A stretch of DNA of 64,000 nt from Naegleria gruberi (Eukaryota): assembly GCA_000004985.1 (NCBI GenBank), contig GG738893.1, one strand, 5' to 3'. The position numbers and the translations under genes are program-made. Each line of letters begins with the position of its first letter. The stretch's first letter is position 1. A model generated the notes under the pieces. The model did no database searches, had not been told where the DNA came from, and saw only the letters and a list, made by a program, of their open reading frames with translations. This document shows, in pieces, positions 1 to 44,058 of the stretch.

Positions 1-292
1 AATATTTTGATTTTTAAAATCATTATTCACAATTGAAGAGGTAAGTGCTGCTTCACTTCCAACAAAACTACCTCCCGATTTTTGTGCCATCATCATTGTT
101 GTACTCATTGATGATCTCTTCTTTGGTGAATAGGAAGTAGGTTTTGAAAATGATCCTAATAGTCCAACATCATCCGATTCCGATAATTGTTTTTGTTGAA
201 ATGATGTAGAAAGTGCTGAGAGTATTGTTGGTGATTTTCTTGCGAACAATACTTTGAAAAAGTCGTCCGTTATTATTACTCCATCAAGCATT
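1..292 (-). CDS. Hypothetical protein, 5' part only; the gene continues beyond the window start
   Basis: The reverse complement of 1..292 is open from an ATG (complement of cat at about 290-292) and reads MLDGVIITDDFFKVLFARKSPTILSALSTSFQQKQLSESDD... with no stop before the window edge. It is S/T-rich and shows no recognisable domain. Confidence 0.35.
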
Positions 293-436
293 TTTTTTTA
301 AATTTAAAAATTTATTAAATTTAATTTAAATATTACAATTAACTATTTACTGTAATTACCTTTACTTCTTTAAATTTTGTAACATTAATAATTGTTTAAT
401 AACATGCAAATTCAAAATTTAATTTAAAAAAAATAC

Positions 437-1000
437 ATGAAAGAAAAAACAAAGAAACCCAACATGGCCAAAGTTTCCACTGGTTTTTTAATTGAAGATG
501 GTTCGGGATCATCACCTCTCTATCTAATGTGCCACACTACATGTCATAAAAAACCTCCAAAACAACCAATTTTACCATCAGAAACTGATGAAAAGTGGAC
601 AGTTCCGAAGGGAATTATTGATGAGAGTAATTCAAGTCAGGTTGGTGATGATATTGAAATTGAAACAGCAATTAGAGAATTGAAGGAAGAAACTGGTATT
701 GATTTGATTGGAAATGAAGTTTTGAGAAAGGAGTTTTATGATCCATTTCTCAGCAAGACTTTGAAATTTAATCTTCATAAGGAGTACAAGATTAAGGCAA
801 AAGTTATCAGAATTTACTTATTGAAGGATAGTAAAGGATTAATTAAGAGTCAATATGATACTTCTGCTATGAAATGTACATCTCTGATTGATATCGATCA
901 TCCTTTGAAGGGGTTTCCAGAGGTTGATGCCTTTTTGTGGGTCACAAAAGCACAAGCTTCTAGAATTGCATTGAAATCTCAAAAGGTTCTTTTCAAATAA
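437..1000 (+). CDS. Nudix-family hydrolase (187 aa)
   Basis: The ORF track gives 437..1000. It contains a Nudix-box-like signature GDDIEIETAIRELKEETGI (REx2EExGU core). The stretch between the G-x5-E and the RE looks about 4 residues shorter than canonical. The ATG at 437 follows an A-rich leader. Confidence 0.65.
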   Translation: MKEKTKKPNMAKVSTGFLIEDGSGSSPLYLMCHTTCHKKPPKQPILPSETDEKWTVPKGIIDESNSSQVGDDIEIETAIRELKEETGIDLIGNEVLRKEFYDPFLSKTLKFNLHKEYKIKAKVIRIYLLKDSKGLIKSQYDTSAMKCTSLIDIDHPLKGFPEVDAFLWVTKAQASRIALKSQKVLFK

Positions 1001-2065
1001 TTAATGTTTCCAACCATTTGAATGACCTTGTTCTCTGTAAGGTTCTAAAAATCCTCTAAATATCACTTGATTTGAATTGGTGGTATCTTGATCAGATTTG
1101 ATAGAATTATTTCCCCTTTTATACACCCATCTAGATCCATATCCTTCAAAATTTCTCACTTCAACACAAGGAACATTATGAGGAAGAATGTGTGCATTAA
1201 TAAATGTTGCCTCATTTACAATCTTTTCTAAAATTGCAAGAGATTTTCTATTCTTTTCCTTGGCATTTCCAGTTAAGACAGTAGAACCTCCCCAAAATTG
1301 ATCAGTTTCACTTCTGTGACAATGCTTAGCAAGAGCTCTGGCTCCAACTGTGAGACCACTTGTCTTTTCCAAAACTTCATTAAATGAATCAATTAATTCC
1401 TTATAGGTTGGTATCATGTATGAAATACTGCCTGTTGTTTTCCTCATCCTTAGACAGGTTTGAAATCCTCTTAATTTCATTTCCAGAATAATTTGTTGAA
1501 CATGTTCATCCAAGACTGTTTCCTCAGTACTGAAATCCGTAGAGTTCAATTTCAGAATTCTATCTGTAAATTTTGAACTGAGCTCTGTGTAATATTCAAA
1601 ATCATCTTCAATGCTTGGAAATTGTTGGAATTGAATTGGGAATTTTCCTTCTCTACCCCATAATATCCAAATGAAAGCAATCTATCTCAATAATCGAATT
1701 AGAAATAAAATCAAAATATTTACCTCTTGGAAAATATTTGAAACATTCAATGTTGGATAACCAATTAATATTTTCTCTCCATTCTCCAAATTATGATATT
1801 TTACAAGATTTAATAAATTAGCATCATCATTAATATTTTCCTCCTGATCGGAATTTACAAAATTCAATCCAAGGGCTTCCTTCAAGTACTCAGCAGAGAC
1901 TGCAATCGGAGTGGGATCTTTAAATTCCTGTTGCTCATCTGATCCTAAATCATTATTCAACTGAGGGGAATGACAAATCCATTCACTAAATAAATTGCTA
2001 TCATTTAATATGAAGGAAATTGATTTCCGAATACAATTTGATAAATTACAAATATTTGGCAACAT
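1001..2065 (-). CDS. Conserved hypothetical protein, 2 exons (about 340 aa)
   Basis: Model: join(complement(1724..2065), complement(1001..1681)). The ATG is the complement of 2063-2065. On the minus strand the donor is GAG|GTAAAT and a 42-nt intron ends at GATAG. The downstream exon continues in frame as ...NIFQE|IAFIWILWGREGKFPIQF... into ORF 1001..1549, ending ...AKHCHRSETDQFWGG...NAHILPHNVPCVEV. Its stop codon abuts the stop of the 437..1000 gene. The ORF-track M at 1549 is a TTG, not the real start. Confidence 0.5.
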
Positions 2066-2857
2066 GTTTTAATGTTATTGTATTTTTTTTTAATTTAAAA
2101 ATTTCAATTTTAAAAAACGGATCGCCTTTATGGACGACTATTTCAAAAAGTTTCAGAAATTGTAAGTGTTCATAATTGTTTTTATTATTTCCAATAACTT
2201 CAACTTGTTCGAAACATCCCAAACCTTCATGTATTTTCATTACCCAAAAGACAATCTTCAAAAGGAAAGTTGACCCACTAATCAAACCCACAAAAATATC
2301 AATTGAATACCATTCTAAGTGTTCCACATCTTCAAATTTCAATCCTCTCTAGAAGAAACTAAACTATTCAATAATGATTGGTGTGTGAATGGCTCAAATA
2401 ATACAACCAATACCAAGTATCTCATCTGTGATATCAGAAAAAGCCTTCAGTATCACCAACTCACTCCCAACTCTCTGTGAACGAATGTTTGAAAATCAAA
2501 AACTTCCTCTGTCAATTTTATTGTTGTTTGCCACTTTCCAAATCTTCCAACCTCAACAACACACAAAAAAAAGCCTTCAACCGCGCTCGCTGCGACACCC
2601 AACAAATCTCGTCAATCTTTTTTTTGCCGCCACTTTCCAGCAGCGTTTTCAACGTCGATATTCTCTCTTCTTTGAAAAAACAACTTTGCGTCGTCATTGT
2701 CGAGGACTTGATATAAACTCATCAAAGTCATCATACATTAGAATACACTAATAATATACACATCATCTCGTTTTTGTTATCTTCTTCTTCATTAACGAAA
2801 AATATAAAGGGTGAGTGATTTGAAAGATTGTGTTTTATTTAAAATATCAAAAAGAAA

Positions 2858-4169
2858 ATGGCCGAAATTAATTTACAAGAAGCTATTTCAAATGCCAGAT
2901 TAGAGGCACAACAATTGAAGGAAAAAATCAACGCACAGAGAAAAGTTATTAATGATGTGAACAGTAAGTGTTTTTATTGTGTGAGGTTTTTATAATTTAC
3001 TCTTGACATTTGACAAACATCATCAACATGTTGGAAATTTATGATGATATTTTATTATTAAAACTAAATAGTGAAGGATTTGGATGTTGCTGAAATTTCA
3101 CCTCTCAAATTAAAGGAACGAAGAGTGTTTAAAGGACACTCATCTAAAGTTGCTAGTTTAGCTTGGTCAAAGGACTCGAAGACAATTTTGACTGCCGGCC
3201 AAGATAGAATGTTAATTGTAAGTTTAGGAAGTGGTAATAATGATTTGATGACACTTTTTAGTTATGGGATGCTGTGACAACATATAAATTGAGTGCTATT
3301 CCTCTACAAGCTCGTGGTATTATGTGTTGCGATTATAGTACGAGTGGAAATTATGTTTGTGTTGGTGGTTTGGATAACATTTGTTCAGTTTGTAAGTAAT
3401 TATTATCAATAATTATGATGTTAATAAGTTTCGAATAGTTTCCCTTTCTGCTGTTACTCAACAATTACAAAACTCATCCAATGAATACAAGCCATTCAGG
3501 CAACTAGTAGGACATACAGGCTATTTGAGCTCTTGCAAATTTATTAGTGATCGTCACATATTAACTAGTTCTGGAGATCAAAGTTGTATTTTCTGGGATG
3601 TTGAAATGACTCACGCGGTGTCACATTTCCAAGTAAGTATTATTCAATATTAGAAATGTTAACTATTTAATTAGGAACATACTGGTGATTGTATGGCTGT
3701 TTCTGTTTCTCCTATTGAACAAAATGTATTTGTTAGTGGAAGTTGTGATGGTAGTTCAAAGTTGTGGGATGTACGTATGAATAAGTGTGTTGCCACATTC
3801 ACTGGTCATGAAGGTGATATCAATTCAGTTCAATTTTTCCCTAATGGAAATGCCTTTGCCACTGGTTCTGATGATTGTACTTGTAGATTGTTCGACCTTC
3901 GTGCTTCACGTGAGGTTATGACCTATTCAGATGATAATGTCAGAGAAGGTGTCACTAGTATTAGTTTCAGCAAATCTGGACGTGTTTTATTTGCTGCCTA
4001 TGAAGATAAGAAAGTTATTGCTTGGGATTCATTGAAAGGAACCATTTTACAAACTTTGGATGGCCTTCCAAATGGTCACGATAATCGTGTCAGTTGTTTG
4101 GCAGTTTCTCCTGATGGACACGCTCTTGCCACAGGTTCATGGGACATGACCATGAAGATATTTGCTTAA
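2858..4169 (+). CDS. Heterotrimeric G-protein beta subunit (WD40), 5 exons
   Basis: Model: join(2858..2963, 3072..3217, 3262..3391, 3439..3632, 3675..4169), totalling 1071 nt (357 codons). All four introns are GTAAGT...(T/A)AG and 42-108 nt long. The N-terminal coiled coil is [26 protein letters not shown] repeats follow with the Gbeta hallmarks [47 protein letters not shown] and [21 protein letters not shown]. Confidence 0.85.
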
Positions 4170-15933: not shown

Positions 15934-17076
15934 TTATTCTTGTTGCTTTTTCTTCTTCTTTCTATAATGTTTAACAAATGATTTCTTATCCAGCACCTTA
16001 ATTTCATTCCCCTCATGTTTAAACAGGTCATTATCGAGCATATATGATGGTTTTTCTTGCTTAAATTGAGCAAGATATGTAGAAAGGTAATTGGCACGTG
16101 ACTCATAAACAGGATAATCATCAGATTCCACCAAGTGTCTTCTCTTTGAGATGACAGTAACTCTTGCTCCATCATAATCCGTACTAAATGATTTCAAAGA
16201 ATAAAATTGACAAATGGCATGTGTAAGAAAACGTCTATGACCATCAGTTAATACCAAAACCATAAAATTACCCTTCAATCTATCTACTAATTCCGATTGT
16301 TGCTCAGCTGTATTTTCTTCCTTATTTTCATTTTCTTCATCTATAACTTTTCTTTGATTAATGAATGGAATGAGAATATCTTCCATTAAGGTCACAAAAT
16401 CTACATCATACTGTCTATTGAGGGCTTCCTTTGCTTGTTGTTCAACCAATTTATGATATCTTTGATGAGCAGTGAGCGACTTGAGGGAAGGTGCCTTCTT
16501 TTCTTTCATTTGATAACCTTGTTCTTCAAATTCTCTCAAAGCTGGTTCAATTACATTTCTAAATTCACTAGTTGTCCAAATTTCTTCGTGAGGAATAACA
16601 AATAAACTCTTGTAATCCTCCTCAGTGGCATCACCATGAAATATATTTGCATCTTTCAAATCTTTTAAATGTTTTTTAACAACTTGATCTTGTTGTACTT
16701 GAAGATTCTTTTTTCTCAACTTTTTCTTCTTATCAACTGTACTGGAAAATGTCATCAAATTTGAAGAAGGTGGGAATGAATGGGCTTGTTCAATATTTTC
16801 AATTTCAATATGATGAGATGCAACCTCTGATGAAGTAACAACATTTGATGGTTGTTGTGCTGATGAATTACCTCTATTCATCCTTCTTCCACCTCTCAAT
16901 ACAGTTGAGTTACGATCAATAGTAGCATCACCACTCAAATAACTTTCGGAATCAAAGAAAATATCATCCTCCGATGTACCACTCAAGCCTGAACTAGAAT
17001 AGTCAACATTTTGGCTTGGAAGTGTAGTACCCAAGCTATTGTGTTGAATAATAATACGTTTTGGTCTTTGACTCAT
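15934..17076 (-). CDS. R3H-domain-like protein (about 380 aa)
   Basis: Lies within minus ORF 15934..17208. The likely start is MSQRPKRIII, with the ATG at the complement of 17074-17076. The C-terminal region GNFMVLVLTDGHRRFLTHAICQFYSLKSF fits the R-x3-H motif of R3H nucleic-acid-binding domains. Confidence 0.45.
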   Translation of the reverse strand: MSQRPKRIIIQHNSLGTTLPSQNVDYSSSGLSGTSEDDIFFDSESYLSGDATIDRNSTVLRGGRRMNRGNSSAQQPSNVVTSSEVASHHIEIENIEQAHSFPPSSNLMTFSSTVDKKKKLRKKNLQVQQDQVVKKHLKDLKDANIFHGDATEEDYKSLFVIPHEEIWTTSEFRNVIEPALREFEEQGYQMKEKKAPSLKSLTAHQRYHKLVEQQAKEALNRQYDVDFVTLMEDILIPFINQRKVIDEENENKEENTAEQQSELVDRLKGNFMVLVLTDGHRRFLTHAICQFYSLKSFSTDYDGARVTVISKRRHLVESDDYPVYESRANYLSTYLAQFKQEKPSYMLDNDLFKHEGNEIKVLDKKSFVKHYRKKKKKQQE

Positions 17077-17238
17077 TTTTTTTACTTCTTTTTTTAGCTT
17101 CAAATTGTAAAAGAAAATTAATCTTGAAATTGAAGTGGTGGAATACAAGACAATGTCAATGAGAAACAAGTCAAAATGAGGGTTTACACTTGTGGTGCAA
17201 CACTTCATGTGACAGGTTCTGGTTCATTTTACAAAAAA

Positions 17239-17640
17239 ATGTCTACAAGTCATTCAGTAGATCACTTTTCAATGTTGCCCTATGAAATTTTACAAATGAT
17301 TTTGGCATTTGCTGTTGATCGGAAATTGTCGGATTGCAGTGCCATACAGTCACATGTGGAGTTTGTGGCAAATTTTCAATCCTTGAGTAAGAAGATTAAT
17401 GATTTGAAGGAGATGGCGGAATGTTTCAATGAATTTTGGTGGAATTTATTTAAGAGTTTTAGTTTTGCAACTGAAAATTATTCAAACGGGAAGGAATTGG
17501 AGCAATTGAAAAGTAAATTGATAAAAAATCGAGAGCTCAGAAGGAAGATTTTACTTTTCCGATATGTTAAATACAAAACTCTATCGAATAATAATTCTCA
17601 ACAACAAATGTTAATATTACTGGTAAGGGATTTTATATAG
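17239..17640 (+). CDS. Small ORF with an F-box-like N-terminus; it may instead be the N-terminal extension of the downstream GTPase
   Basis: It starts MSTSHSVDHFSMLPYEILQMILAFAV. It ends at a TAG at 17638-17640 that is in frame with the GTPase exon beginning at 17641. Confidence 0.35.
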   Translation: MSTSHSVDHFSMLPYEILQMILAFAVDRKLSDCSAIQSHVEFVANFQSLSKKINDLKEMAECFNEFWWNLFKSFSFATENYSNGKELEQLKSKLIKNRELRRKILLFRYVKYKTLSNNNSQQQMLILLVRDFI

Positions 17641-18318
17641 TTCAACATTTTCTTAAATGATAAAGTTCTTGGAAGTGAAAGAGTAGGAAAATCATCCATT
17701 ACAATATTCTTTGTAACAAATTTTGTAATTGATGATCATGAGTCATCGTTTGAGGATACCTATGTTAAACAATTGAAAATAGACAGACTATCGGTCAAAC
17801 TTGCAATTTTAGACACAAGTAAGTTGTTGAATATGTGAAATTTACACAATGAAATAGTTGAATCGGATTATCATTATTTGAGAGAAACACATATTCTATA
17901 TGCAGATGGTTTTGTCTTGATTTGCTCTGTGGATAACATAAAATCACTTGTGGGAATTCGAGAACAAGTTGCAAAAATTGTAAGAGTGAAAGATCTCGAA
18001 GTCAATAGCACTCCAATTGTGTTTGTAATTAACAAGATTGATTTATTACAAAATGACAATAGGAAACAAACAATCGATGAATTCAAAAAGGAAATTAATA
18101 ATATAATCAAAGAGTATGACTTGGTGAATACAAGTACAATGCTGAGCAGTGTTAAAAGTGAACCAGAGAAAATTACTTTAATATTTGAGGAATTGGTAAA
18201 AAGACAAATTCTGCAAGGTGACAATATAGAAATTCTTAAAAATGTTGTAGAGAAAGATTGGTCATACATTCAGGAATGCAACAATACATTGAATAAGAAG
18301 AAGTGCTCATTAATGTAA
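17641..18318 (+). CDS. Ras-family small GTPase with a C-terminal CAAX box (CSLM); the N-terminal exon is unresolved
   Basis: Exons: 17641..17818, then 17858..18318 (ORF track 17878..18318), joined across a 39-nt intron GTAAGT..AATAG. The G1 motif is LGSERVGKSS, and the downstream strand reads SITIFFVTNFVIDDHESSFEDTYVKQLKIDRLSVKLAILDT. The spliced switch II reads DTIESD instead of DTAGQE. NKID, the CAAX box and a polybasic KKK are present. Two start models are possible: a 15-nt exon ATGTTAATATTACTG at 17608..17622 with an 18-nt intron, or the donor AAAA|GTAAAT at 17513 joined to an acceptor at 17665. Either supplies the N-terminus. Confidence 0.6.
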
Positions 18319-18385: not shown

Positions 18386-20935
18386 TTAATCATCATTGCC
18401 AGCATACTTATTGTACACAGAACCCAGGAAGCTCTTTGGAATTTCCATTTTGTCCAGCCTTACAGGTTGTGGTTTGTTGTGAGGTCTGGAAAATGAAGAG
18501 CAACAAGCCCAAATAATATAACTAACTTGCACACTAAGCCATCTAGCATGTCCTCTGGAATCAACACATTCTGCCATTAATTCTTTTCTATTTCTATCAG
18601 AGCTGAACATTTTCATGAGAGAAGCTGAATCATTATTATTGGTGGATTTTAGATTTGAAGGAGGAAGATCAATACCTGGAATCTTTAAAGAATAGACATT
18701 GACTTCTGGGAGGTTAGGTAAGTGCTTATTAATTTGAGTTACAGCAAATCTGATAATGAAGAGAAGACCCAGTCTCGGGTATGTTGGGAATTCCACGTCT
18801 GGAATACCTTCCAACTTTTCTAATTCTTGTAAAATCTTTGGGATGTTAAATACTACATTATGTTGACTGCTAATTGTAACATTTTCAACATCTTTCTTTT
18901 TGAAAGAAATAATGCATTGTTTCAAAGAATGAATAAGCTCCTTGAAGGTTAATGGTGGGATAAATCCAACATCCATTGACATTCTCTCGTTTCTATTTGG
19001 CAGCTCAATAAGAGTCTTTTCAATAAGCATTAACAATGAAGGAATTGATATATCTAACGGAATGACCATGTCTAGTTCATCAACATGACTTGAAATATAC
19101 TCAAAGATCTTTAAAATAATGTTAGTCAGTGTCATACTACTAAAGTTAGGACACTCAATGTTTGGTTCATCCAATGTTTCAAACATCTCTGCAATAATTT
19201 CAAAAGCAGATGCAAAATTAGTTTCACCAAATCCTAAATCAATCTTCTTTTCGGTGAAATTCTTCATAAAGAAGCATCTTGATGCAATTCTACACACTGA
19301 GGATGGTTTCTCAAATGCTTTCACACCAGGAAGCCACACTTTTGGATCTTGAACTCTATCAATCTTCTTGATTAAATGTTCAAATACCATAAACTTGGAA
19401 AGTTTGAATAAATTCTTCTTTAAAATCTTTGAGATTGCAATCTCAGTTTCCTTTTCCTTTTTTTGTGTCTTGATATTTGATTTTAAGAAGATACCATGTC
19501 GACCTTCTTCTGTATTGAATTGACCATAATAAATGGTTGAAAACATTGTATAGGGGAATCTTCTTGCTCTCTTGTATGAACTCTCTTTCTTTTTTGAATT
19601 GTATGCGAAAGTGTAGATTGCTTGATCTGTTAAACATAATAATCTTTCTTGGAATTGACCTCTGTGATTAATCTTATTTACTGTCCATCCATACTTGAAT
19701 TCCTCAGCCTTCTTTGCTTGTATTCCTTCACTTTTTTCGTAATCTGCCCAATACTGATTGATACTCTCAATGCAGTTTTGTTTTTCTTCTTCTTTTAATT
19801 GGTAAAAGCTCTCAGAGTTTGAAATGATTTCTAATAAAGGATCCACGGTTTTAAAATTCAATGCAGCATAGTTTGTGAGATCCTTCATCAATTCAATAAG
19901 ATCGTCTTGTTCCTGATTTGTTATCTGTTCTAATTTTACAAATTTCTTTCTCATCATTTCAAATTTACAAGCAATTCCAATAGCTTTTGAAATTTCTTTT
20001 GGAGAAACATGACCAATGTGATATCTATAAACACCATAAATATACAAGGTCTTTTTACAAATATAACAAAAACCAGAATCTGGAGGTTTTGGTTTTCTAT
20101 CATCTTCACTGTTTCTAAACACTATTGTATCAACGGCATCTGCAATTTCATTTGCTTCCAAGCCATGTTCATGAGTTACAAGTCTGAAAGCACTGATTAG
20201 TGAAAGAATGGAATAACTACATTCCAGACTGCAAAAGTTACTTAGACAAAGGTCAACATTTCCTGCCTTTTCAAATGATTCCCAATCCACTTCAATCTTG
20301 AGGTCATAACTTGGAAGCAACATTTCACCCTTAATAGAATTTTGAGAAATTGAAATTGATCTTGTGATAAACTCTTGATAGTATTCTCTATTAACTCCTA
20401 GAAGAGAACCCAACTTTAACATGAAAGAATTACTGCCAACATCTCCCATAAGGGAAGGTCCTTCATCAAATACAACAGCAATTTGTAAATTTCCATCAAT
20501 AAGAGTTAATGTTGTAGAGTTAATATCAGATATTACCGAGTACTCTTCATCACATCGTTGATAATCTAATCCATCAGCAACAAATAATGTCTCGTTCACC
20601 AGCTCTTCTTTCAAGAATGGTTTTGCTGCTACCGTTATCTTTTTAACCTTTTGAGCAAAGGATGTTCTTATATTCTCGTAATCTTCTCTCTGTAATAAAA
20701 ACTCTATAACATCTAACAAGTGTCCGAGAATGAAAAAGCCATCCCAAACTTGAAGATGTTCCAGAGAATTTTCAAAGTTATTACTAAATTGTTTAATACT
20801 TGAAAAATTAACCTCTACATCTATCAGTTCTCCAATAAGGGACATAAGCTTGTCTTTAACAGCTGGTATAATCTCTCCCTTAATTTTATCCTCCATAATT
20901 TGAGCCTGAAGGTTAACTTTTACACTCATCTCCAA
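18386..20935 (-). CDS. Large hypothetical protein (849 aa)
   Basis: Single minus ORF from the track. It looks like a globular protein with no motif I can assign with confidence. Confidence 0.55.
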   Translation of the reverse strand: MEMSVKVNLQAQIMEDKIKGEIIPAVKDKLMSLIGELIDVEVNFSSIKQFSNNFENSLEHLQVWDGFFILGHLLDVIEFLLQREDYENIRTSFAQKVKKITVAAKPFLKEELVNETLFVADGLDYQRCDEEYSVISDINSTTLTLIDGNLQIAVVFDEGPSLMGDVGSNSFMLKLGSLLGVNREYYQEFITRSISISQNSIKGEMLLPSYDLKIEVDWESFEKAGNVDLCLSNFCSLECSYSILSLISAFRLVTHEHGLEANEIADAVDTIVFRNSEDDRKPKPPDSGFCYICKKTLYIYGVYRYHIGHVSPKEISKAIGIACKFEMMRKKFVKLEQITNQEQDDLIELMKDLTNYAALNFKTVDPLLEIISNSESFYQLKEEEKQNCIESINQYWADYEKSEGIQAKKAEEFKYGWTVNKINHRGQFQERLLCLTDQAIYTFAYNSKKKESSYKRARRFPYTMFSTIYYGQFNTEEGRHGIFLKSNIKTQKKEKETEIAISKILKKNLFKLSKFMVFEHLIKKIDRVQDPKVWLPGVKAFEKPSSVCRIASRCFFMKNFTEKKIDLGFGETNFASAFEIIAEMFETLDEPNIECPNFSSMTLTNIILKIFEYISSHVDELDMVIPLDISIPSLLMLIEKTLIELPNRNERMSMDVGFIPPLTFKELIHSLKQCIISFKKKDVENVTISSQHNVVFNIPKILQELEKLEGIPDVEFPTYPRLGLLFIIRFAVTQINKHLPNLPEVNVYSLKIPGIDLPPSNLKSTNNNDSASLMKMFSSDRNRKELMAECVDSRGHARWLSVQVSYIIWACCSSFSRPHNKPQPVRLDKMEIPKSFLGSVYNKYAGNDD

Positions 20936-23008: not shown

Positions 23009-26000
23009 ATGGTCAACATTAGCTCGGAGAAACTTCATCAAACACAACAAGATACTGAACATGTGAGAAATATTTGTATTATTGCTCACGTTGATCACGG
23101 AAAAACAACATTATCAGATTTTTTAATATCCAGTAATGGAATCATCAGTAGTAACTTGGCAGGAAAGATGAGATACATGGATAGTACAGCCTACGAACAA
23201 GAAAAGAGAATTACAATGAAAAGTAGTGCTATTAGTTTATTATATAAAGATAAAAACGATGAAAATTCGGATGAATATATAATTAATTTAATCGATTCAC
23301 CAGGGCACGTGGATTTTAGTAGTGAAGTGAGTACAGCAGCAAGACTTTCCGATGGATGTTTAGTGTTAGTGGATGTTGTTGAAGGTGTTTGTACACAAAC
23401 AAAGACAGTTCTTGAACAAGCCTTCAGAGAAAATATTAAACCATGTCTAGTTTTAAATAAGATTGATCGTTTGATACTTGAAAAACAAATGACACCAATG
23501 GAAGCTTACAAACAAATGTTACACATTTTACAACAAGTCAACGTATTATTGACAACTTTTGTTACAGTTCAATTATTCAAGAAAATTAATGAACAAGATG
23601 AAAAGAAGGAAGATACAAAGGAAGAGGAAACAAAGGATCAATCAAAGCAACAATATGACAATGTTTTTGATGATAATGAAGTTGACAGTAATGACTTTTT
23701 CTCACCATCAAAGGGTAACGTTTTGTTTGCTAGTGCCTATGATGGTTGGGGATTTAGAATTAATGATTTTAGTGAAATTTTCTCAAAGAAGATGGGTATG
23801 AATAAGAATACACTTCAACAAACACTTTGGGGTGATTTTTATTTGAATCCAAAGAAGAAAGCAATCTCAAAAAAGCCAATCAAAGATGATCAACCAAATA
23901 TGTTTGTTCAATTCATTTTGCAAAACATTTATAGTGCATACGATTGTTTACTGATTAATCGTGATGAAGAAAAGATTAAGAAAATGATCCAAGCTTTAGA
24001 TTTGAATTTATCTAAAGCATTCTTGTCAAAGAATGATCACAAGAGTCAGCTTAAAACATTGATGAATCAATGGTTACCAATGTCTGATTCCATCTTATCT
24101 ATGGTTGTTAGCAGGTTACCAAATCCAAAAGAAGCTCAAAAGGAAAGAGTCTTAGACCTTATTCCAGAATTAAAGACAATCAAGGATAAAACCAATGAAA
24201 CTAAGAAATCAAACCAAGTCAATGCTGAAATTAGAACTCAAAGAAGAAAGCTGAAGAAGAATTTAATGCAATGCGACAAGAGTGATAATGCTGAAGTGTT
24301 GATTTTCGTTTCAAAGATGTTCGAAGCTGATGAAATACCAACCCAAGGTGGTTCAGCAACTAAGATAGATCAAATCCAACTTCAAAGAGAAAGATTGAGA
24401 AAACTCAGAGAAGAAAGATTAAAGCAAAAGGAGCTCGGAGAAACTTCCACAACAGAAACTGACTCTGCTCAACCTACTGAAGGTTCTGAATCAACAGAAA
24501 CAAATGAAGAAAATAACCAAGAGAATGATACTGAAGCAAGCAAGCTTGTTGCTTTTTGTAGAATTTTCAGTGGTACAATCAGAGTTGGACAAACTTTGCA
24601 TATTCTTGGCCCAAGATACAATGCTTCCAATCCTAATGAAGATCGTATCGAATTCAAGGTTGATAAGCTCTTCCTTTTGATGGGTAGAGGTCTGGAATGT
24701 GTTGATAGTGTGCCAGCTGGTAATATTTTCGGTTTGGGTGGTGTTGGTAAGCATATTTTGAAAACTGCCACTATTTCATCAAGCACTCATTCACCAATCT
24801 TCTCGGCAATGTATGTCCAATCTATTCCTATTGTTAGATTTGCTATAGAACCACAAAATTTGATGGATATGCCAAAATTGGTTAAGGGTCTCAAACTCTT
24901 GAACCAAGCCGATCCATCTGTTGAAGTACTTGTACAAGAAACAGGTGAACATGTTATTGTCACTGCTGGAGAAGTCCATGCCGAAAGATGTATAAGAGAT
25001 TTGAATGAAAGATTCGCCAAGGTTCCAATAACTGTTTCTCCACCACTTGTCAGTTTCAGAGAAACTATTATTGAACAACAAAAGGAACCAGTAATAGCCT
25101 CTAAGAAAACTGGTAACAAGAGATGGACCATCAAGATTAAGGCTATTCCACTCCCTGAAAATATTGCCCACTACATCGATAAACATAAGGAAGATTTCAG
25201 AGCTTATTTCTCTAACGACTCTAGAAGAACATCCAAGTCTGTCTTTGTTACCTCTGAGGTTATTGATGGATTGAAACAACAATTTATTGATGCAGGAAAG
25301 CAATGGGAAACTGAGTGGGATAATGTGTGGTGTTTAGGTCCAAGAAGAATTGGTCCAAATGTACTCTTGAATCACATTCCAGATTACAAAACACCAAACT
25401 TTGAACCTTTGCACAAACAAGTTGCTGACATGTTGGCAGAAAATGAAGACGAAGAAACAACAGCAACAGAGGAACCAGTTGAAACATCTGAAAGAATAGA
25501 ATCCCTTAAACAATTTGATCACAGTTTTATTTCAGGCTTCCAACTTGCTACAAACTCTGGTCCATTGTGTGACGAACCAATGTATGGCGTTTGTTTCTGT
25601 ATTGAAGATGTAGTTTTCGAAACTGAGGGAATTCATGACGAAGACTTTGGTGGTCCATTTACTGGACAAATCATGAGTTCAATGAAGACTGCTTGTAGAA
25701 AATCCTTTGATAACAGTCAAAGAAGATTGGTAGAAGCCATGTACGATTGTGAAATTCAAGCTACCAATGAAAGTGTTGGTAGTGTTTGTGATGTTTTGAG
25801 AAGAAGAAGAGCCAAGATTTATTCAGATGATATGGAGGAAGGAAGTGGTCTCTTCATTATCAAATGTCACTTGCCAGTTGCTGAAAGTTTTGGATTTTCA
25901 GAAGAATTAAGAACAAGAACAAGTGGTGCTGCTCAACCTCAAATTGCATTCTCACATTGGCAAATTCTCGATGTGGATCCATTCTTTGTTCCAACCACTG

Positions 26001-26158
26001 AAGATGAGCTTGAAGAATGGGGAGAAAAGGGTCTTATCAATATTCCAAATATTGCCAAGCAATATATTGATGCTGTAAGAAAGAGAAAGGGTTTGATGCT
26101 TGACAAGAAGACTGTTGAATCTGCTGAAAAGCAAAGAAACTTATCAAAGAAGAAGTAA
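23009..26158 (+). CDS. Elongation factor-like GTPase 1 (EFL1/Ria1-type, EF-2 superfamily; 1049 aa)
   Basis: ORF from the track. The N-terminus reads NICIIAHVDHGKTTLSDFLISSNGIISSNLAGKMRYMDSTAYEQEKRITMKSSAISL, then NLIDSPGHVDFSSEV and LNKIDRL. A long acidic insertion sits between the G domain and domain II. EF-2-like domains IV and V follow. Confidence 0.7.
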   Translation: MVNISSEKLHQTQQDTEHVRNICIIAHVDHGKTTLSDFLISSNGIISSNLAGKMRYMDSTAYEQEKRITMKSSAISLLYKDKNDENSDEYIINLIDSPGHVDFSSEVSTAARLSDGCLVLVDVVEGVCTQTKTVLEQAFRENIKPCLVLNKIDRLILEKQMTPMEAYKQMLHILQQVNVLLTTFVTVQLFKKINEQDEKKEDTKEEETKDQSKQQYDNVFDDNEVDSNDFFSPSKGNVLFASAYDGWGFRINDFSEIFSKKMGMNKNTLQQTLWGDFYLNPKKKAISKKPIKDDQPNMFVQFILQNIYSAYDCLLINRDEEKIKKMIQALDLNLSKAFLSKNDHKSQLKTLMNQWLPMSDSILSMVVSRLPNPKEAQKERVLDLIPELKTIKDKTNETKKSNQVNAEIRTQRRKLKKNLMQCDKSDNAEVLIFVSKMFEADEIPTQGGSATKIDQIQLQRERLRKLREERLKQKELGETSTTETDSAQPTEGSESTETNEENNQENDTEASKLVAFCRIFSGTIRVGQTLHILGPRYNASNPNEDRIEFKVDKLFLLMGRGLECVDSVPAGNIFGLGGVGKHILKTATISSSTHSPIFSAMYVQSIPIVRFAIEPQNLMDMPKLVKGLKLLNQADPSVEVLVQETGEHVIVTAGEVHAERCIRDLNERFAKVPITVSPPLVSFRETIIEQQKEPVIASKKTGNKRWTIKIKAIPLPENIAHYIDKHKEDFRAYFSNDSRRTSKSVFVTSEVIDGLKQQFIDAGKQWETEWDNVWCLGPRRIGPNVLLNHIPDYKTPNFEPLHKQVADMLAENEDEETTATEEPVETSERIESLKQFDHSFISGFQLATNSGPLCDEPMYGVCFCIEDVVFETEGIHDEDFGGPFTGQIMSSMKTACRKSFDNSQRRLVEAMYDCEIQATNESVGSVCDVLRRRRAKIYSDDMEEGSGLFIIKCHLPVAESFGFSEELRTRTSGAAQPQIAFSHWQILDVDPFFVPTTEDELEEWGEKGLINIPNIAKQYIDAVRKRKGLMLDKKTVESAEKQRNLSKKK

Positions 26159-42608: not shown

Positions 42609-44058
42609 TTACATTTTAGAGACTGGTTCAAGTTGTAAAGTGGTATTTTCCAAAACAGTATTATCAGCAATAATAGACTTGCTCTTTGCTATCAGTGTAA
42701 CCTTTCCTTTGAGAACAACGTTCTTTCCAAAAACAACATGACCACGGACATCGAGTTCAGTAAGTTCCTTAATATCTGGTACACCATTGCTAAAGTTTGA
42801 AAGATAGTCTCCAACCTTCTTATAATAACTATCATCAAGATTAATAATTGGAGCTTCTTCAGTGCTAGACTTTTCCAAGCAATAACCCTCAGAGAGATTA
42901 TATAAATTAGATTGGACTAACATGAGATCAGAACATTTCTTAACAGGTAAGAAACGAGATCTAGGGACTTCAATACCGAGTGACTTATTGAAAACTTGAA
43001 TAGCAGCACCAGCAGCTGTTTCCAATTGAATAATCTTGACACCATCCACTTCCTTCTCGTTATTAATAATTTCAACCTTTCTCTTTAATTCTTCCAATTG
43101 AGTTTCAATGGATGGAAGACGAATCCATAAATTGTTGGTATTGAAAATCTTGAACTTTTCGATTGATTCAAAATCTTTAACGTGGTGTTTTGGAACTTGA
43201 GCAAGTTCTAATAATTTAACAGCCTTTCCATCATAATTGATCAAAGTACCTCCTTTAACGTCAGCCATAGTTTTCTTAGTGACCTCCATACAAAAATCGA
43301 CTTGATTTTCAGTGAGATACTTCAAAACTCTAAGATCAACTGTAGCACCTAAATTGTCAATATTAGAAAGGAAAATATATTCTTTTCCTTCTTGTTTGAA
43401 TTGATTATATAATGGTGATTGGAAGAATGAGCTATAAAAGTCACCGTGACCTGGTGGATACCAAGCTTCCTTATTGGAATCACTTGGAATATCAGATGGT
43501 AATGGAAGTAGTGATTCCTTGATAATTCTTGGAAATTGATTTTGTTCGAAACATTCAATTCTAACTTTAACATTGGCATACTTTGGGGCAGTGATAATCT
43601 TCTTTGAATCTTCTGAAGTATTGAATGAATTCATTAAAACCAAAGGAACGTCAACGTTGTATTTGCTGTTCAAAAACTGAAAAGTTTAGAAATAGGCAAA
43701 ATTAAATACTTACTTGAATTTGTTTGATAGTGAGATCGAGGAAAGTATCTTCCTCTCGGACTTGAATGACTGATTTTGGACCAGTGCAACCCATGGTAGT
43801 TCCCAAACCACCATTTAATTTAATAACAATTAATTTAGATAAAAGTGATTGAATTGCTTCATCGGAAGTGTCGTCAGCGAGTGAATCGTATGGTTTGACG
43901 TCTTCCTCAGAAGGTGTTCTAATCTTTTCCCAATCGATTTGTGATTGATCCTTTTCATTGACAAATCTATTGAACAAGATTAAAAAGTCTTGCATTTGTT
44001 GAGCAAAGTGTTCCTTTCCGTTAGACTTTTCAATAAGTTGTTGTACAGCTTGTTCCAT
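42609..44058 (-). CDS. UTP--glucose-1-phosphate uridylyltransferase (UDP-glucose pyrophosphorylase), 2 exons, 470 aa
   Basis: Model: join(complement(43714..44058), complement(42609..43676)). On the minus strand the donor is CAA|GTAAGT and a 37-nt intron ends at TTTTCAG. The ATG is the complement of 44056-44058 (MEQAVQQLIEK). It has the diagnostic LNGGLGTTMGCTGPKS and NSKYNVDVPLVLMNSFNT. Confidence 0.85.

Follow-up and report, generated by a model that had tools for sequence, protein, structure and literature searches.

A TAG-interrupted Ras-type GTPase gene with an F-box-like N-terminal extension in Naegleria gruberi, possibly a recently disabled copy of a heterolobosean family

Small GTPases that carry an F-box are already described in Naegleria. 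In the survey of Herman et al. (2021, BMC Biol 19:142, PMC8296547), the F-box was the most frequent extra domain on the Ras-superfamily GTPases of this genus; some subgroups of these F-box-GTPases bear a CaaX, lineage-specific expansions have taken place, and some members are disrupted. GTPase-linked recruitment of a ubiquitin ligase is the published hypothesis for such fusions (Herman et al., 2021, PMC8296547). The gene considered here, NAEGRDRAFT_71880 (XP_002673059.1; D2VSB5), is listed in Table S8 of PMC8296547 with a manually corrected fused model and stands there in the 'Ras' group without a flag for an extra domain. XP_002673059 appears only once in that table, which means that it is not given as the 1:1 orthologue of any N. 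fowleri gene. Both the F-box-GTPase fusion in Naegleria and the fused model of this gene were therefore already published in 2021, and the architecture is not the unusual one for which the earlier note on this DNA had taken it. The gene and the published fusions have in common an N-terminal F-box or F-box-like element on a Ras-superfamily GTPase; the F-box signal of this gene lies below the Pfam thresholds. Two further groups are useful for comparison. The first is Ras sensu stricto (KRAS, Rap1, MRAS, RRAS2), to which the AF2 model of a paralogue of this gene is similar with TM values of 0.83-0.88 and 37-42% identity. The second group comprises the Rnd proteins and RhoH, hydrolysis-deficient atypical GTPases in which the DxxG glycine is retained; they are expressed and have functions in the cell. 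Proteins of the Rnd/RhoH type would be expected to hold nucleotide constitutively, without switching.

The window, that is the whole stretch of 64,000 nucleotides that was analysed, comes from the nuclear genome of Naegleria gruberi. The features of the locus are collected in Table 1; its neighbours lie at 15934-17077 and 18386-20935, both on the minus strand. Judged by its alignment with relatives, the gene is a divergent copy within a family of Ras-type small GTPases of the Heterolobosea (Naegleria, Willaertia). Members of this family are composed of a helical extension of ~125 residues that starts with LPxEIxxxILxF, a basic linker, a Ras domain, a helical tail and a polybasic CaaX. The Ras domain of the family is that of Ras sensu stricto, and its switch II usually reads DTAGPE, with proline replacing the catalytic glutamine; in several members the DxxG glycine is absent. 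The AF2 model of one paralogue (P0153), with a pLDDT of 81.5, finds its best matches in KRAS, Rap1 and MRAS. XP_002673033.1 and XP_002668509.1 of N. gruberi, XP_044551453.1 and XP_044545843.1 of N. lovaniensis and KAL9658725.1 of Willaertia magna are collinear with the gene over the whole length. The features shared with these relatives (39% identity, E 7e-75) are LPxEI...FQSxxK...FWW, the KRKILL..Y.K.K linker, the Ras domain, the helical tail and KKCxxM. This copy differs from them in having a TAG within a segment of its own, and in reading DTIESD for DTAGPE, GSERVGKS for GxGGVGKS and ESSFED for DPTIED.

The paralogues, which are 333-342 aa long, match the locus collinearly in one frame through both in-frame stops; tblastn with three of them (P0153, P0004, P0155) gave a single HSP in frame +1 over 17266-18315 (E 7e-75 to 9e-48). 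The ORF opened by ATG 17239 runs in frame to the TAG, and the codons from 17641 onward keep that frame. Since one collinear paralogue alignment extends across both stops, the upstream ORF is, by homology, the N-terminal extension of the same GTPase gene and not a separate gene. The earlier note had linked an F-box-like ORF (17239..17640) to the GTPase, in the same frame and with a TAG directly before 17641, and this description is borne out by the alignment and by the letters. Of the family-HMM score, about 90 bits come from the N-terminus and about 37 from the linker. The gene identifiers, when searched in the literature, were not mentioned in main texts. A word-index protein search for orthologues matched only the gene's own public model (P0003; JGI/NCBI), a metagenome scan with this protein found no relative, and exact look-up of the ORF products of the window returned no recorded match.

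Table 1. Features of the locus, in positions of the window.
Feature	Position	Strand	Description
Whole locus	17239..18318	+	One ancestral frame: N-terminal extension, Ras domain and CaaX; broken by TAG and one intron
Alternative start ATG	17176	+	Chosen in the curated sequence of Herman et al.
Start codon, most likely	17239..17241	+	Gives 12 residues ahead of LPxEI; relatives have 5-20
F-box-like N-terminal region	17263..17460	+	Residues 9-74: LPYEILQMILAF ... FQSLSKKI ... FWW
Alternative start ATG	17296	+	JGI model; cuts into the conserved LPxEI helix
Conserved helical linker	17488..17583	+	GKELEQLKSKLIKNRELRRKILLFRYVKYKTL; most of it intronic in the JGI model
Intron of JGI/NCBI model P0003, 153 nt	17513..17665	+	Rejected as ancestral structure; homology runs through
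Gene-specific 43-nt segment	17623..17665	+	GTAAGG donor, AAAG acceptor; contains TAG
18-nt GT-AG segment	17623..17640	+	GTAAGG...TATAG; frame-keeping; curated intron of Herman et al.; TAG at 17638-17640
G1 / P-loop GSERVGKS	17671..17694	+	GxxxxGKS kept; Glu and Arg at the G12 and G13 equivalents; family GxGGVGKS
Switch I HESSFEDTY	17737..17763	+	Family YDPTIEDSY; Ras T35 equivalent is Ser
G3 / switch II	17812..17868	+	GAC ACA A / TT GAA TCG GAT = D T I E S D; split by intron
Spliceosomal intron, 39 nt	17819..17857	+	GTAAGT...AAATAG, phase 1; in-frame TGA 17836-17838 inside
G4 NKID, intact	18031..18042	+	N246, K247 and D249 invariant in alignment
G5 SVK	18148..18156	+	Family SAK; Ras A146 equivalent is Val
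CaaX CSLM and TAA	18304..18318	+	CSLM 18304-18315, TAA 18316-18318; KKK just before

The F-box-like character of the N-terminus, which had been suggested from the letters of the upstream ORF, is supported for helix 1 only, and Pfam places no F-box in this protein. The motif LPxE[IL]xxxI[LF]xxL is present as LPYEILQMILAF, and residues L13, P14, E16, L22 and W67 are invariant or nearly so across the family alignment. When the family profile was compared by hhalign with seven Pfam-validated F-boxes, a probability of 91% was obtained over 17 columns, which cover helix 1 only. The protein itself gave no Pfam hit at E<=10 to an F-box domain (PF00646 / PF12937). Four relatives have sub-threshold Pfam F-box matches at the same N-terminal site: a Willaertia protein (P0035) reaches 22.9 bits vs a cut-off of 24.3 (E 7e-5), and the E-values of the other three are 1e-3 (P0025), 7e-3 (P0013) and 8e-3 (P0022). 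A profile search of the PDB with the N-terminus was non-significant (E 0.2-0.8), with FBXL5, FBXO3 and AnkB within the top 9 matches. For the N-terminal ORF, AF2 gave an all-helical model of low confidence (pLDDT 59), with which Foldseek found no PDB match; the N-terminus of the full-length paralogue model reaches a pLDDT of 54-89.

The Ras domain is recognised by Pfam (PF00071) under any splice model, with 61.7-64.0 bits against a cut-off of 21.6 (E 2e-17 to 8e-17), well outside what chance would give, although the score is lower here (62-64 bits) than in eight relatives (82-113 bits). The G1, NKxD and CAAX motifs that had been noted earlier in the GTPase body are all present (Table 1). Beside the profile score, the gene has kept GxxxxGK[ST], NKxD and G5, with SVK for SAK, and it has lost the switch I threonine (T35), DxxG and the catalytic glutamine. 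At the C-terminus, all family members share C337 and nearly all share K335, and the relatives end in KKCSIM, KKCSLM and KKCLFM. The Pfam Ras domain, the P-loop, NKxD and the polybasic farnesyl-type CaaX are common to this gene and Ras sensu stricto, from which it differs by the addition of the 125-aa N-terminal and helical C-terminal extensions. The catalytic glutamine of Ras is replaced by proline in the family and by serine here, and this copy has also lost the DxxG glycine and both P-loop glycines. By analogy, the substitution of the G12 and Q61 equivalents, together with the retention of the P-loop Lys/Ser and NKxD, suggests a functional resemblance to Rnd and RhoH; in contrast to these proteins, the DxxG glycine is lost here as well and expression is doubtful. 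Because G1, NKxD and SxK are kept, a protein made from this gene would probably still bind nucleotide. The changes equivalent to G12E, G13R, T35S, G60E and Q61S predict that it would neither hydrolyse GTP nor flip its switch II.

The divergent switch II is not a product of the choice of splice sites. The 39-nt segment that splits it is, by comparison with relatives, a genuine intron: an environmental relative (L001) has a 55-nt intron (549-603) at the identical site and phase, after the DT of G3, and taking out the 39 nt restores the family length and adds 10.4 bits to the family-HMM score. Moreover, in a full enumeration this was the sole in-frame GT-AG pair that spares switch II, and none of the in-frame GT-AG alternatives among all pairs enumerated yields DTAG or a glutamine. 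In the environmental relative, the codons GAT ACT G/.../CT GGT CCA GAA give DTAGPE, the usual family sequence, vs DTIESD here, where the Ras G60 equivalent is glutamate and the Q61 equivalent is serine. On the evidence of these comparisons, DT-IESD arises by substitution, and the ILDT-IESD junction without glycine or glutamine had been read correctly.

The difficulty of the locus lies upstream of the P-loop. The linker GKELEQLKSKLIKNRELRRKILLFRYVKYKTL matches LEKLRLRMIKRDEMKRKILLASYIKFKLY of a paralogue residue for residue. It is followed by a TAG-bearing segment of 42-43 nt that is absent from 12 of 12 aligned relatives; alignment with them places before VLG an insertion of 9 aa plus six excised codons, found in this gene alone. 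Removal of the segment as a 43-nt GT-AG intron shifts the frame by +1, and the coding frame stays interrupted when introns of ordinary size are taken out. As had been noticed before, the GTPase has no in-frame ATG of its own between the TAG and G1; the nearest one upstream, at 17608, requires the excision of 17623-17640. The verified introns measure 37 and 42 nt in the window and 39, 42, 47, 55, 88 and about 100 nt in loci of the family. An origin of the 43-nt segment by tandem duplication of the beta-1/P-loop coding sequence was considered and dropped, as the repeats are at chance level only. Weak-donor introns that keep the frame, among them 17566-17640 (75 nt, GTTAAA), were rejected because conserved residues would be deleted.

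The best explanation, to which we give a probability of roughly 0.5 on sequence comparison, is that the locus is a recently disabled or truncated copy. The 43-nt segment would behave like an intron of ordinary size whose removal now shifts the frame, and the assembled locus would then be unable to give a full-length protein by ordinary splicing. The gene would be a recently disabled member of a birth-and-death family, from which at best the N-terminal extension alone, of about 135 aa, could be made. A full-length protein, if it were made by excision of 18 nt or by use of the 153-nt segment as a cryptic intron, would be a farnesylated, membrane-bound pseudo-GTPase. Several observations run counter to disablement. 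The frame stays open for 65 and 153 codons past the TAG in a genome of 33% GC, the CaaX is intact and the splice sites of the 39-nt intron are perfect; therefore, either expression of the gene continues or its inactivation dates from very recent times. Mismatches at 8 of 45 conserved sites fall within the family range of 0-17 obtained by leave-one-out. Gross degeneration of the copy was rejected, since it is not an outlier at the family-conserved sites and its changes cluster in the motifs that handle the nucleotide. The curators took an 18-nt intron and set no pseudogene flag (Herman et al., PMC8296547), and a real intron of this length would also be in keeping with the consensus donor, which lies exactly in phase five codons ahead of the TAG.

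An intact gene with an 18-nt spliceosomal intron at 17623-17640, as in the model of Herman et al., is the first alternative to be weighed, and it seems unlikely. Its product, in which ...QQQMLILL is joined to FNIFLNDKVLGSERVGKSS, has 340 aa, or 361 aa from ATG 17176. The excised segment has canonical ends, lies exactly in frame and removes the sole stop, the CaaX and the long downstream ORFs are kept, and specialists selected this model. Its family-HMM score of 290.3 bits is just 5.7 under that of the best hypothetical product. Among the in-frame GT-AG pairs enumerated, it is the only one that removes the TAG with a consensus donor while keeping the linker, and its GTAAGG is one of just two GT[AG]A[GA] donors in 17480-17640. 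As far as homology allows a reading, the whole upstream ORF would be kept and just these 18 nt around the TAG removed; otherwise the frame would be broken. The size of the segment speaks against it, being less than half of the shortest verified local intron (37 nt) and outside the verified range in both the window and the family loci (39-100 nt). After the 6-nt donor, only 12 nt are left for the branch point and the acceptor. In another heterolobosean genome paper, introns of 9-95 bp were predicted and unverified, and a study of N. fowleri has a 30-bp intron minimum, which was set from its gene models. The in-frame acceptor carries little weight, because any TAG brings its own AG. The product retains before the P-loop nine residues, LFNIFLNDK, that are unknown in relatives and place Asp-Lys at hydrophobic positions of beta-1. 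To our knowledge, few introns outside of ciliates, nucleomorphs and myxozoans would be shorter than one of 18 nt. We consider it rather unlikely, on sequence grounds, that 17623-17640 is really excised as a functional intron about half the length of any other here; the product would be a farnesylated Ras pseudo-GTPase, F-box-like and unable to hydrolyse GTP, with nine residues inserted ahead of the P-loop.

An assembly or allele that is one G off at the intron boundary would also account for the broken frame without disablement, and is in our view improbable. A real intron of 42-43 nt would then leave the product ...QQQMLILLVLGSERVGKSS intact. The candidate sites are CTG[G]GTAAG or AAAG[G]TTCTT, at which the window reads CTGGTAAGG and ATAAAGTTCTT, and both are runs of G. 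With one extra G, the hypothetical product takes on exactly the spacing and length of the family, QQEEVKIIVLGEGGVGKS vs QQQMLILLVLGSERVGKS, and scores highest against both the family HMM (296.0 bits) and Pfam Ras (64.0 bits, from profile position 2 vs 4). The 43-nt segment itself is of typical family size, with a typical donor and about 23% GC. These gains in score are small, however, and none of the relatives examined has an intron at this position. In a Sanger assembly of about 8x coverage, moreover, such errors are uncommon.

The public JGI/NCBI model, in which a 153-nt intron leads from ...ELEQLK to ILGSERVGKS past the TAG and the linker, is quite improbable as the real structure. The larger intron from 17513 that the earlier note had proposed does exist as a possible splice (17513-17665, acceptor AG 17664-17665), and its cost is the conserved linker. 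It is canonical (GTAAAT...AAAG), of normal size and in frame, its beta-1 strand EQLKILG is nearer to the family VKIIVLG than that of the 18-nt model, and it reaches 62.7 bits with the Pfam Ras profile; such a splice might rescue a damaged gene through cryptic sites. On the other hand, it takes out 37 residues that paralogues conserve, and the intron encodes 32 residues that align to the linker of paralogues of only ~40% overall identity, which indicates that the stretch was coding for most of its history. The family-HMM score falls to 253.5 bits vs 290.3 with the linker kept, a loss of 37 bits, the start at 17296 truncates the LPxEI helix, and specialists have replaced the model.

It is very improbable that the locus holds two separate genes, one for an F-box-like protein on its own (17239-17640) and one for a GTPase whose 15-nt first exon opens with ATG 17608. 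The TAG does end the first frame, and ATG 17608 with an 18-nt excision does open the GTPase frame, but all full-length relatives have both parts in one polypeptide and a GTPase-only product forfeits about 90 bits of homology. The two genes would moreover overlap, leaving no room for a promoter, and the 18-nt intron would still be needed. The three splice readings that had been left side by side thus do not agree with the homology evidence, as the 15-nt exon loses ~90 bits and the intron from 17513 ~37 bits, and the separation into two genes contradicts the collinear alignment. Read-through or recoding of the TAG is scarcely credible: translation of the unspliced frame scores 287.2 bits against the family HMM, but the window is standard-code with long stop-free ORFs (e.g. 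a 1049-aa EFL1), the TGA of the gene is intronic and its end is TAA, the 15 extra residues have no counterpart in relatives, and no signal for read-through is known at the TAG. A ciliate-type reassignment of stop codons was likewise dropped, as the window is N. gruberi DNA with long standard-code ORFs.

The interpretation of the locus has consequences for the public data and for the family. The public record XP_002673059 / D2VSB5 appears to be mis-spliced. If the 18-nt intron is real, it stretches the known lower limit of intron size in this lineage; if it is not, the gene adds a fresh case to the birth-and-death turnover that has been reported among the GTPases of Naegleria. At the level of the family, a lipid-anchored Ras domain joined to a putative F-box-like, Skp1-docking helix may serve GTPase-linked ubiquitin ligase recruitment. 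The proline at the glutamine position in most members, together with the loss of the DxxG glycine in several, suggests that family members may act as non-hydrolysing, lipid-anchored adaptors and not as switches. The 2021 survey did not mark the LPxEI-extended Ras subfamily as carrying an F-box, and the F-box signal of this subfamily comes near the threshold in Willaertia.

The target frame runs from its ATG to a TAG, resumes directly after it and continues through GSERVGKS, an in-frame TGA, NKID and a KKKCSLM-TAA end, so that the observation of an earlier note holds. The exhaustive HMMER search yielded 2349 relatives of the target protein (NAEGRDRAFT_71880, XP_002673059), the closest being N. 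gruberi XP_002673033 and XP_002668509 (337 and 333 aa), followed by N. lovaniensis and Willaertia magna proteins and several environmental ORFs. The relatives share an N-terminus (...LPYEIFQHILSF...FQSINKKI...FWW), a linker (MIKRDEMKRKILLASYIKFK), a Ras domain and then a helical tail with a KKCSIM end. They align with the window collinearly in frame +1 across both stops (E 7e-75, 39% identity), and searching them back against the 64 kb revealed no second paralogue. Every possible product of the gene was scored with a family HMM built from 12 relatives. The values were 296.0 bits for a hypothetical product with a 43-nt excision and one extra G, 290.3 for the 18-nt excision with the full upstream ORF, 287.2 for TAG read-through, 279.9 for the 18-nt excision with the 39-nt intron retained, 253.5 for the public JGI model with its 153-nt intron, and 199.8 for a GTPase-only product from ATG 17608. 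Therefore, about 90 bits of family signal reside in the N-terminal ORF, which, with the collinear alignment, bears out the fusion that the earlier note had offered as one reading.

Positions of the features discussed (window coordinates unless a locus is named)
Feature	Position	Strand	Remark
Intron, G-beta (G-protein beta subunit) gene	3633-3674	+	42 nt; Pfam domain continuous
Neighbouring gene, start	~17077	-	MSQRPKRIII...
Divergent interval	17078-17238		~160 nt between start codons
Start in curated model	17176	+	ATG, within divergent interval
Target frame, start	17239	+	ATG
Alignment of relatives	17266-18315	+	frame +1
Public record	17296-18318	+	276 aa
Public 153-nt intron	17513-17665	+	~37 bits of family signal
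Segment specific to target	17623-17664/5	+	42-43 nt
18-nt excision	17623-17640	+	curated model
TAG	17638-17640	+	frame resumes at 17641
Inverted repeat, 18 nt	17691-17708 / 17719-17736		89% complementary; 10-nt loop
39-nt intron	17819-17857	+	curated model; switch II
TGA	17836-17838	+	in frame
EFL1 ORF	23009-26158	+	1049 aa, intronless
Intron, UDPGP (UDP-glucose pyrophosphorylase) gene	43677-43713	-	37 nt; Pfam domain continuous
L003 family locus	1-1326		introns 88, about 60, about 100 nt
L002 family locus	1915-3036		introns 47, 42 nt

The architecture, which the note had regarded as unusual, is already documented in Naegleria, and the gene has already been re-annotated. Herman et al. (2021) revised the annotation of every Ras-superfamily gene in N. 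gruberi and N. fowleri, described divergent GTPase subgroups in which an N-terminal extension is conserved, one of them with a CaaX box, took disrupting mutations in some members as birth-and-death evolution, and proposed a function in GTPase-dependent ubiquitination (PMC8296547). In their Table S8, XP_002673059.1 stands in the 'Ras' group, its sequence corrected by hand, with no pseudogene flag and no extra domain; the model keeps the whole upstream ORF and reads ...QQQMLILL/FNIFLNDKVLG..., then ...ILDT/IESD... (PMC8296547), which is equivalent to removing 18 and 39 nt. Since the accession is found only once in that table, it has no listed 1:1 orthologue in N. fowleri. The public record (XP_002673059.1 / EFC40315.1 / UniProt D2VSB5) is mis-modelled: its start falls within the conserved LPxEI helix, and the 153 nt that it removes as an intron are conserved coding sequence.

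In the alignment with the 12 relatives, a segment ahead of the P-loop was found in the target gene alone, and the curated product too carries a 9-residue insertion, LFNIFLNDK, present in none of them. The insertion and the excised 18 nt together make 42-43 nt, beginning with GTAAGG (17480-17640 contains only one other consensus-like donor), ending with ATAAAG and having ~23% GC. By size and signals, this segment resembles the ordinary short introns of the Naegleria lineage. Local introns verified by Pfam domains unbroken over the junction served as the yardstick for minimum size, and introns at family loci measure 39, 42, 47, 55, 88 and about 100 nt; according to published figures, the genome has 1.7 exons per gene, and its introns have a mean length of 203 bp. 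The segment 17623-17665 is 43 nt long, so its splicing gives a frameshifted ...MLILLFLEVKE followed by a stop. The most likely state of the gene, at a probability of roughly one half, is a recently disabled or truncated copy, in which a frameshifted 43-nt intron or a stop-carrying insertion would have arisen in a family known for turnover. Against this, long frames of 65 and 153 codons stay open downstream, both the CaaX box and the 39-nt intron are intact, and the judgement of the curators went the other way, with no pseudogene flag set (PMC8296547).

A real 18-nt intron is unlikely. It is the sole in-frame option with a consensus donor that keeps the linker, but it is only about half as long as the shortest verified intron, leaves 12 nt after the donor for branch point and acceptor, and uses an AG inherent in any TAG. 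Predicted introns of 9-95 bp are reported for another heterolobosean, Acrasis kona; if the short end of that range is transcript-verified, ultra-short introns in the lineage become less implausible (PMC11589745). Somewhat less probable still is a one-base difference, in the assembly or as an allele: one extra G at either boundary of the 43-nt segment gives ...QQQMLILLVLGSERVGKSS, with exact family spacing and the top HMM and Pfam scores. Use of the 153-nt cryptic intron, the larger intron from 17513 of the earlier note, is slightly more doubtful again, since it removes the conserved linker and its family signal. Protein conservation over 17513-17607, despite only ~40% overall identity to the paralogues, indicates that this stretch was coding for most of its history. 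Two separate genes are highly improbable given the single alignment across both stops and the relatives' common architecture of N-terminus, linker and Ras domain, and TAG read-through is the least credible of all. The remaining question, an 18-nt intron or a dying gene, is minor.

The near-identical N. gruberi paralogue models P0004 and P0153 diverge after PEEFS (NQYMRV versus TWRDQYMRV; cf. L003 590-720), which suggests a misplaced intron boundary in one of them. The metagenome assembly ENA ERZ929261 (run ERR1078381, project PRJEB11402) includes Naegleria DNA: L003 is almost identical to XP_002668509 and L002 is an additional family member, and prokaryote-style gene calls break both genes at introns.

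The environmental locus L001 reads GAT ACT G/gtaagtt...(55 nt)...gatag/CT GGT CCA GAA (DT-A-GPE), and the target gene reads GAC ACA A/gtaagtt...(39 nt)...aaatag/TT GAA TCG GAT (DT-I-ESD). Site, phase and donor are identical; therefore, Gly-to-Glu, Ala-to-Ile and Pro-to-Ser are substitutions. Without the 39 nt, the product returns to family length and gains 10.4 bits on the family HMM, and among the enumerated in-frame GT-AG pairs no other keeps switch II and none yields Gly or Gln. Thus, the intron is genuine and DT-IESD is no splice artefact; the splice and the switch II lacking Gly and Gln were correctly read by the note. DTAGPE, in which Pro takes the place of the catalytic Gln61 of Ras, is the motif of most heterolobosean subfamily members (family alignment; P0004, the relatives P0013 and Willaertia P0035, L001, L002), and at least four members have also lost the DxxG Gly (DTAYS, ETSEH, DCSTD, DTDAA).

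Nucleotide motifs of the family and the target gene
Motif	Family	Target	Ras equivalent
G1	GxGGVGKS	GSERVGKS	G12E, G13R
Switch I	YDPTIEDSY	HESSFEDTY	T35S
G3	DTAGPE	DTIESD	G60E, Q61S
G4	NKxD	NKID	intact
G5	SAK	SVK	A146V

In these motifs, the target copy departs further still from Ras than its already non-canonical family. Its GTPase body scored 62-64 bits against Pfam Ras (cut-off 21.6) versus 82-113 bits in eight relatives; at family-conserved sites it mismatches 8 of 45 (family range 0-17) and is no outlier.

The F-box-like label of the note held in part. A profile of Naegleria N-termini matched seven Pfam-validated F-boxes at 91% probability over 17 columns of helix 1 only, and four relatives gave sub-threshold F-box matches at the same site, the best being the compact 48-residue N-terminus of Willaertia P0035 (22.9 bits; cut-off 24.3). 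The target protein, including the upstream ORF alone, had no Pfam F-box match, a PDB profile search gave no significant match, and the N-terminal AF2 model (pLDDT 59, too uncertain) gave no structural match. The N-terminus is plausibly a derived element of F-box-like type, with insertions in its loops, though this is not established.

In the AF2 model of a full-length paralogue (pLDDT 81.5), a Ras core lies between six N-terminal helices and a helical tail. The modelled core best matched KRAS, Rap1, MRAS and RRAS2 (TM 0.83-0.88), which confirms Ras sensu stricto rather than Rab. The target protein has a CaaX box with a Met end and an adjoining polybasic stretch; under the established rules of prenylation, CaaX boxes ending in Met direct farnesylation. 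Family members would be membrane-anchored proteins of Ras type. Their F-box-like helix may dock Skp1/SCF, as hypothesized by Herman et al. (PMC8296547). With Pro at the catalytic position, family members probably hydrolyse GTP poorly, and hydrolysis may be lacking throughout the heterolobosean subfamily. The target copy, if translated at all, would at best bind nucleotide without switching.

The locus is part of the N. gruberi nuclear genome; the window has ~32% GC and long ORFs in the standard code. The EFL1 ORF is identical to N. gruberi XP_002673061 (ribosome assembly protein 1) on a 337-kb contig. The target gene and its minus-strand neighbour are divergent, and the closeness of their start codons suggests a shared bidirectional promoter. 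The inverted repeat lies in the coding region just past the P-loop and is probably due to chance in AT-rich sequence.
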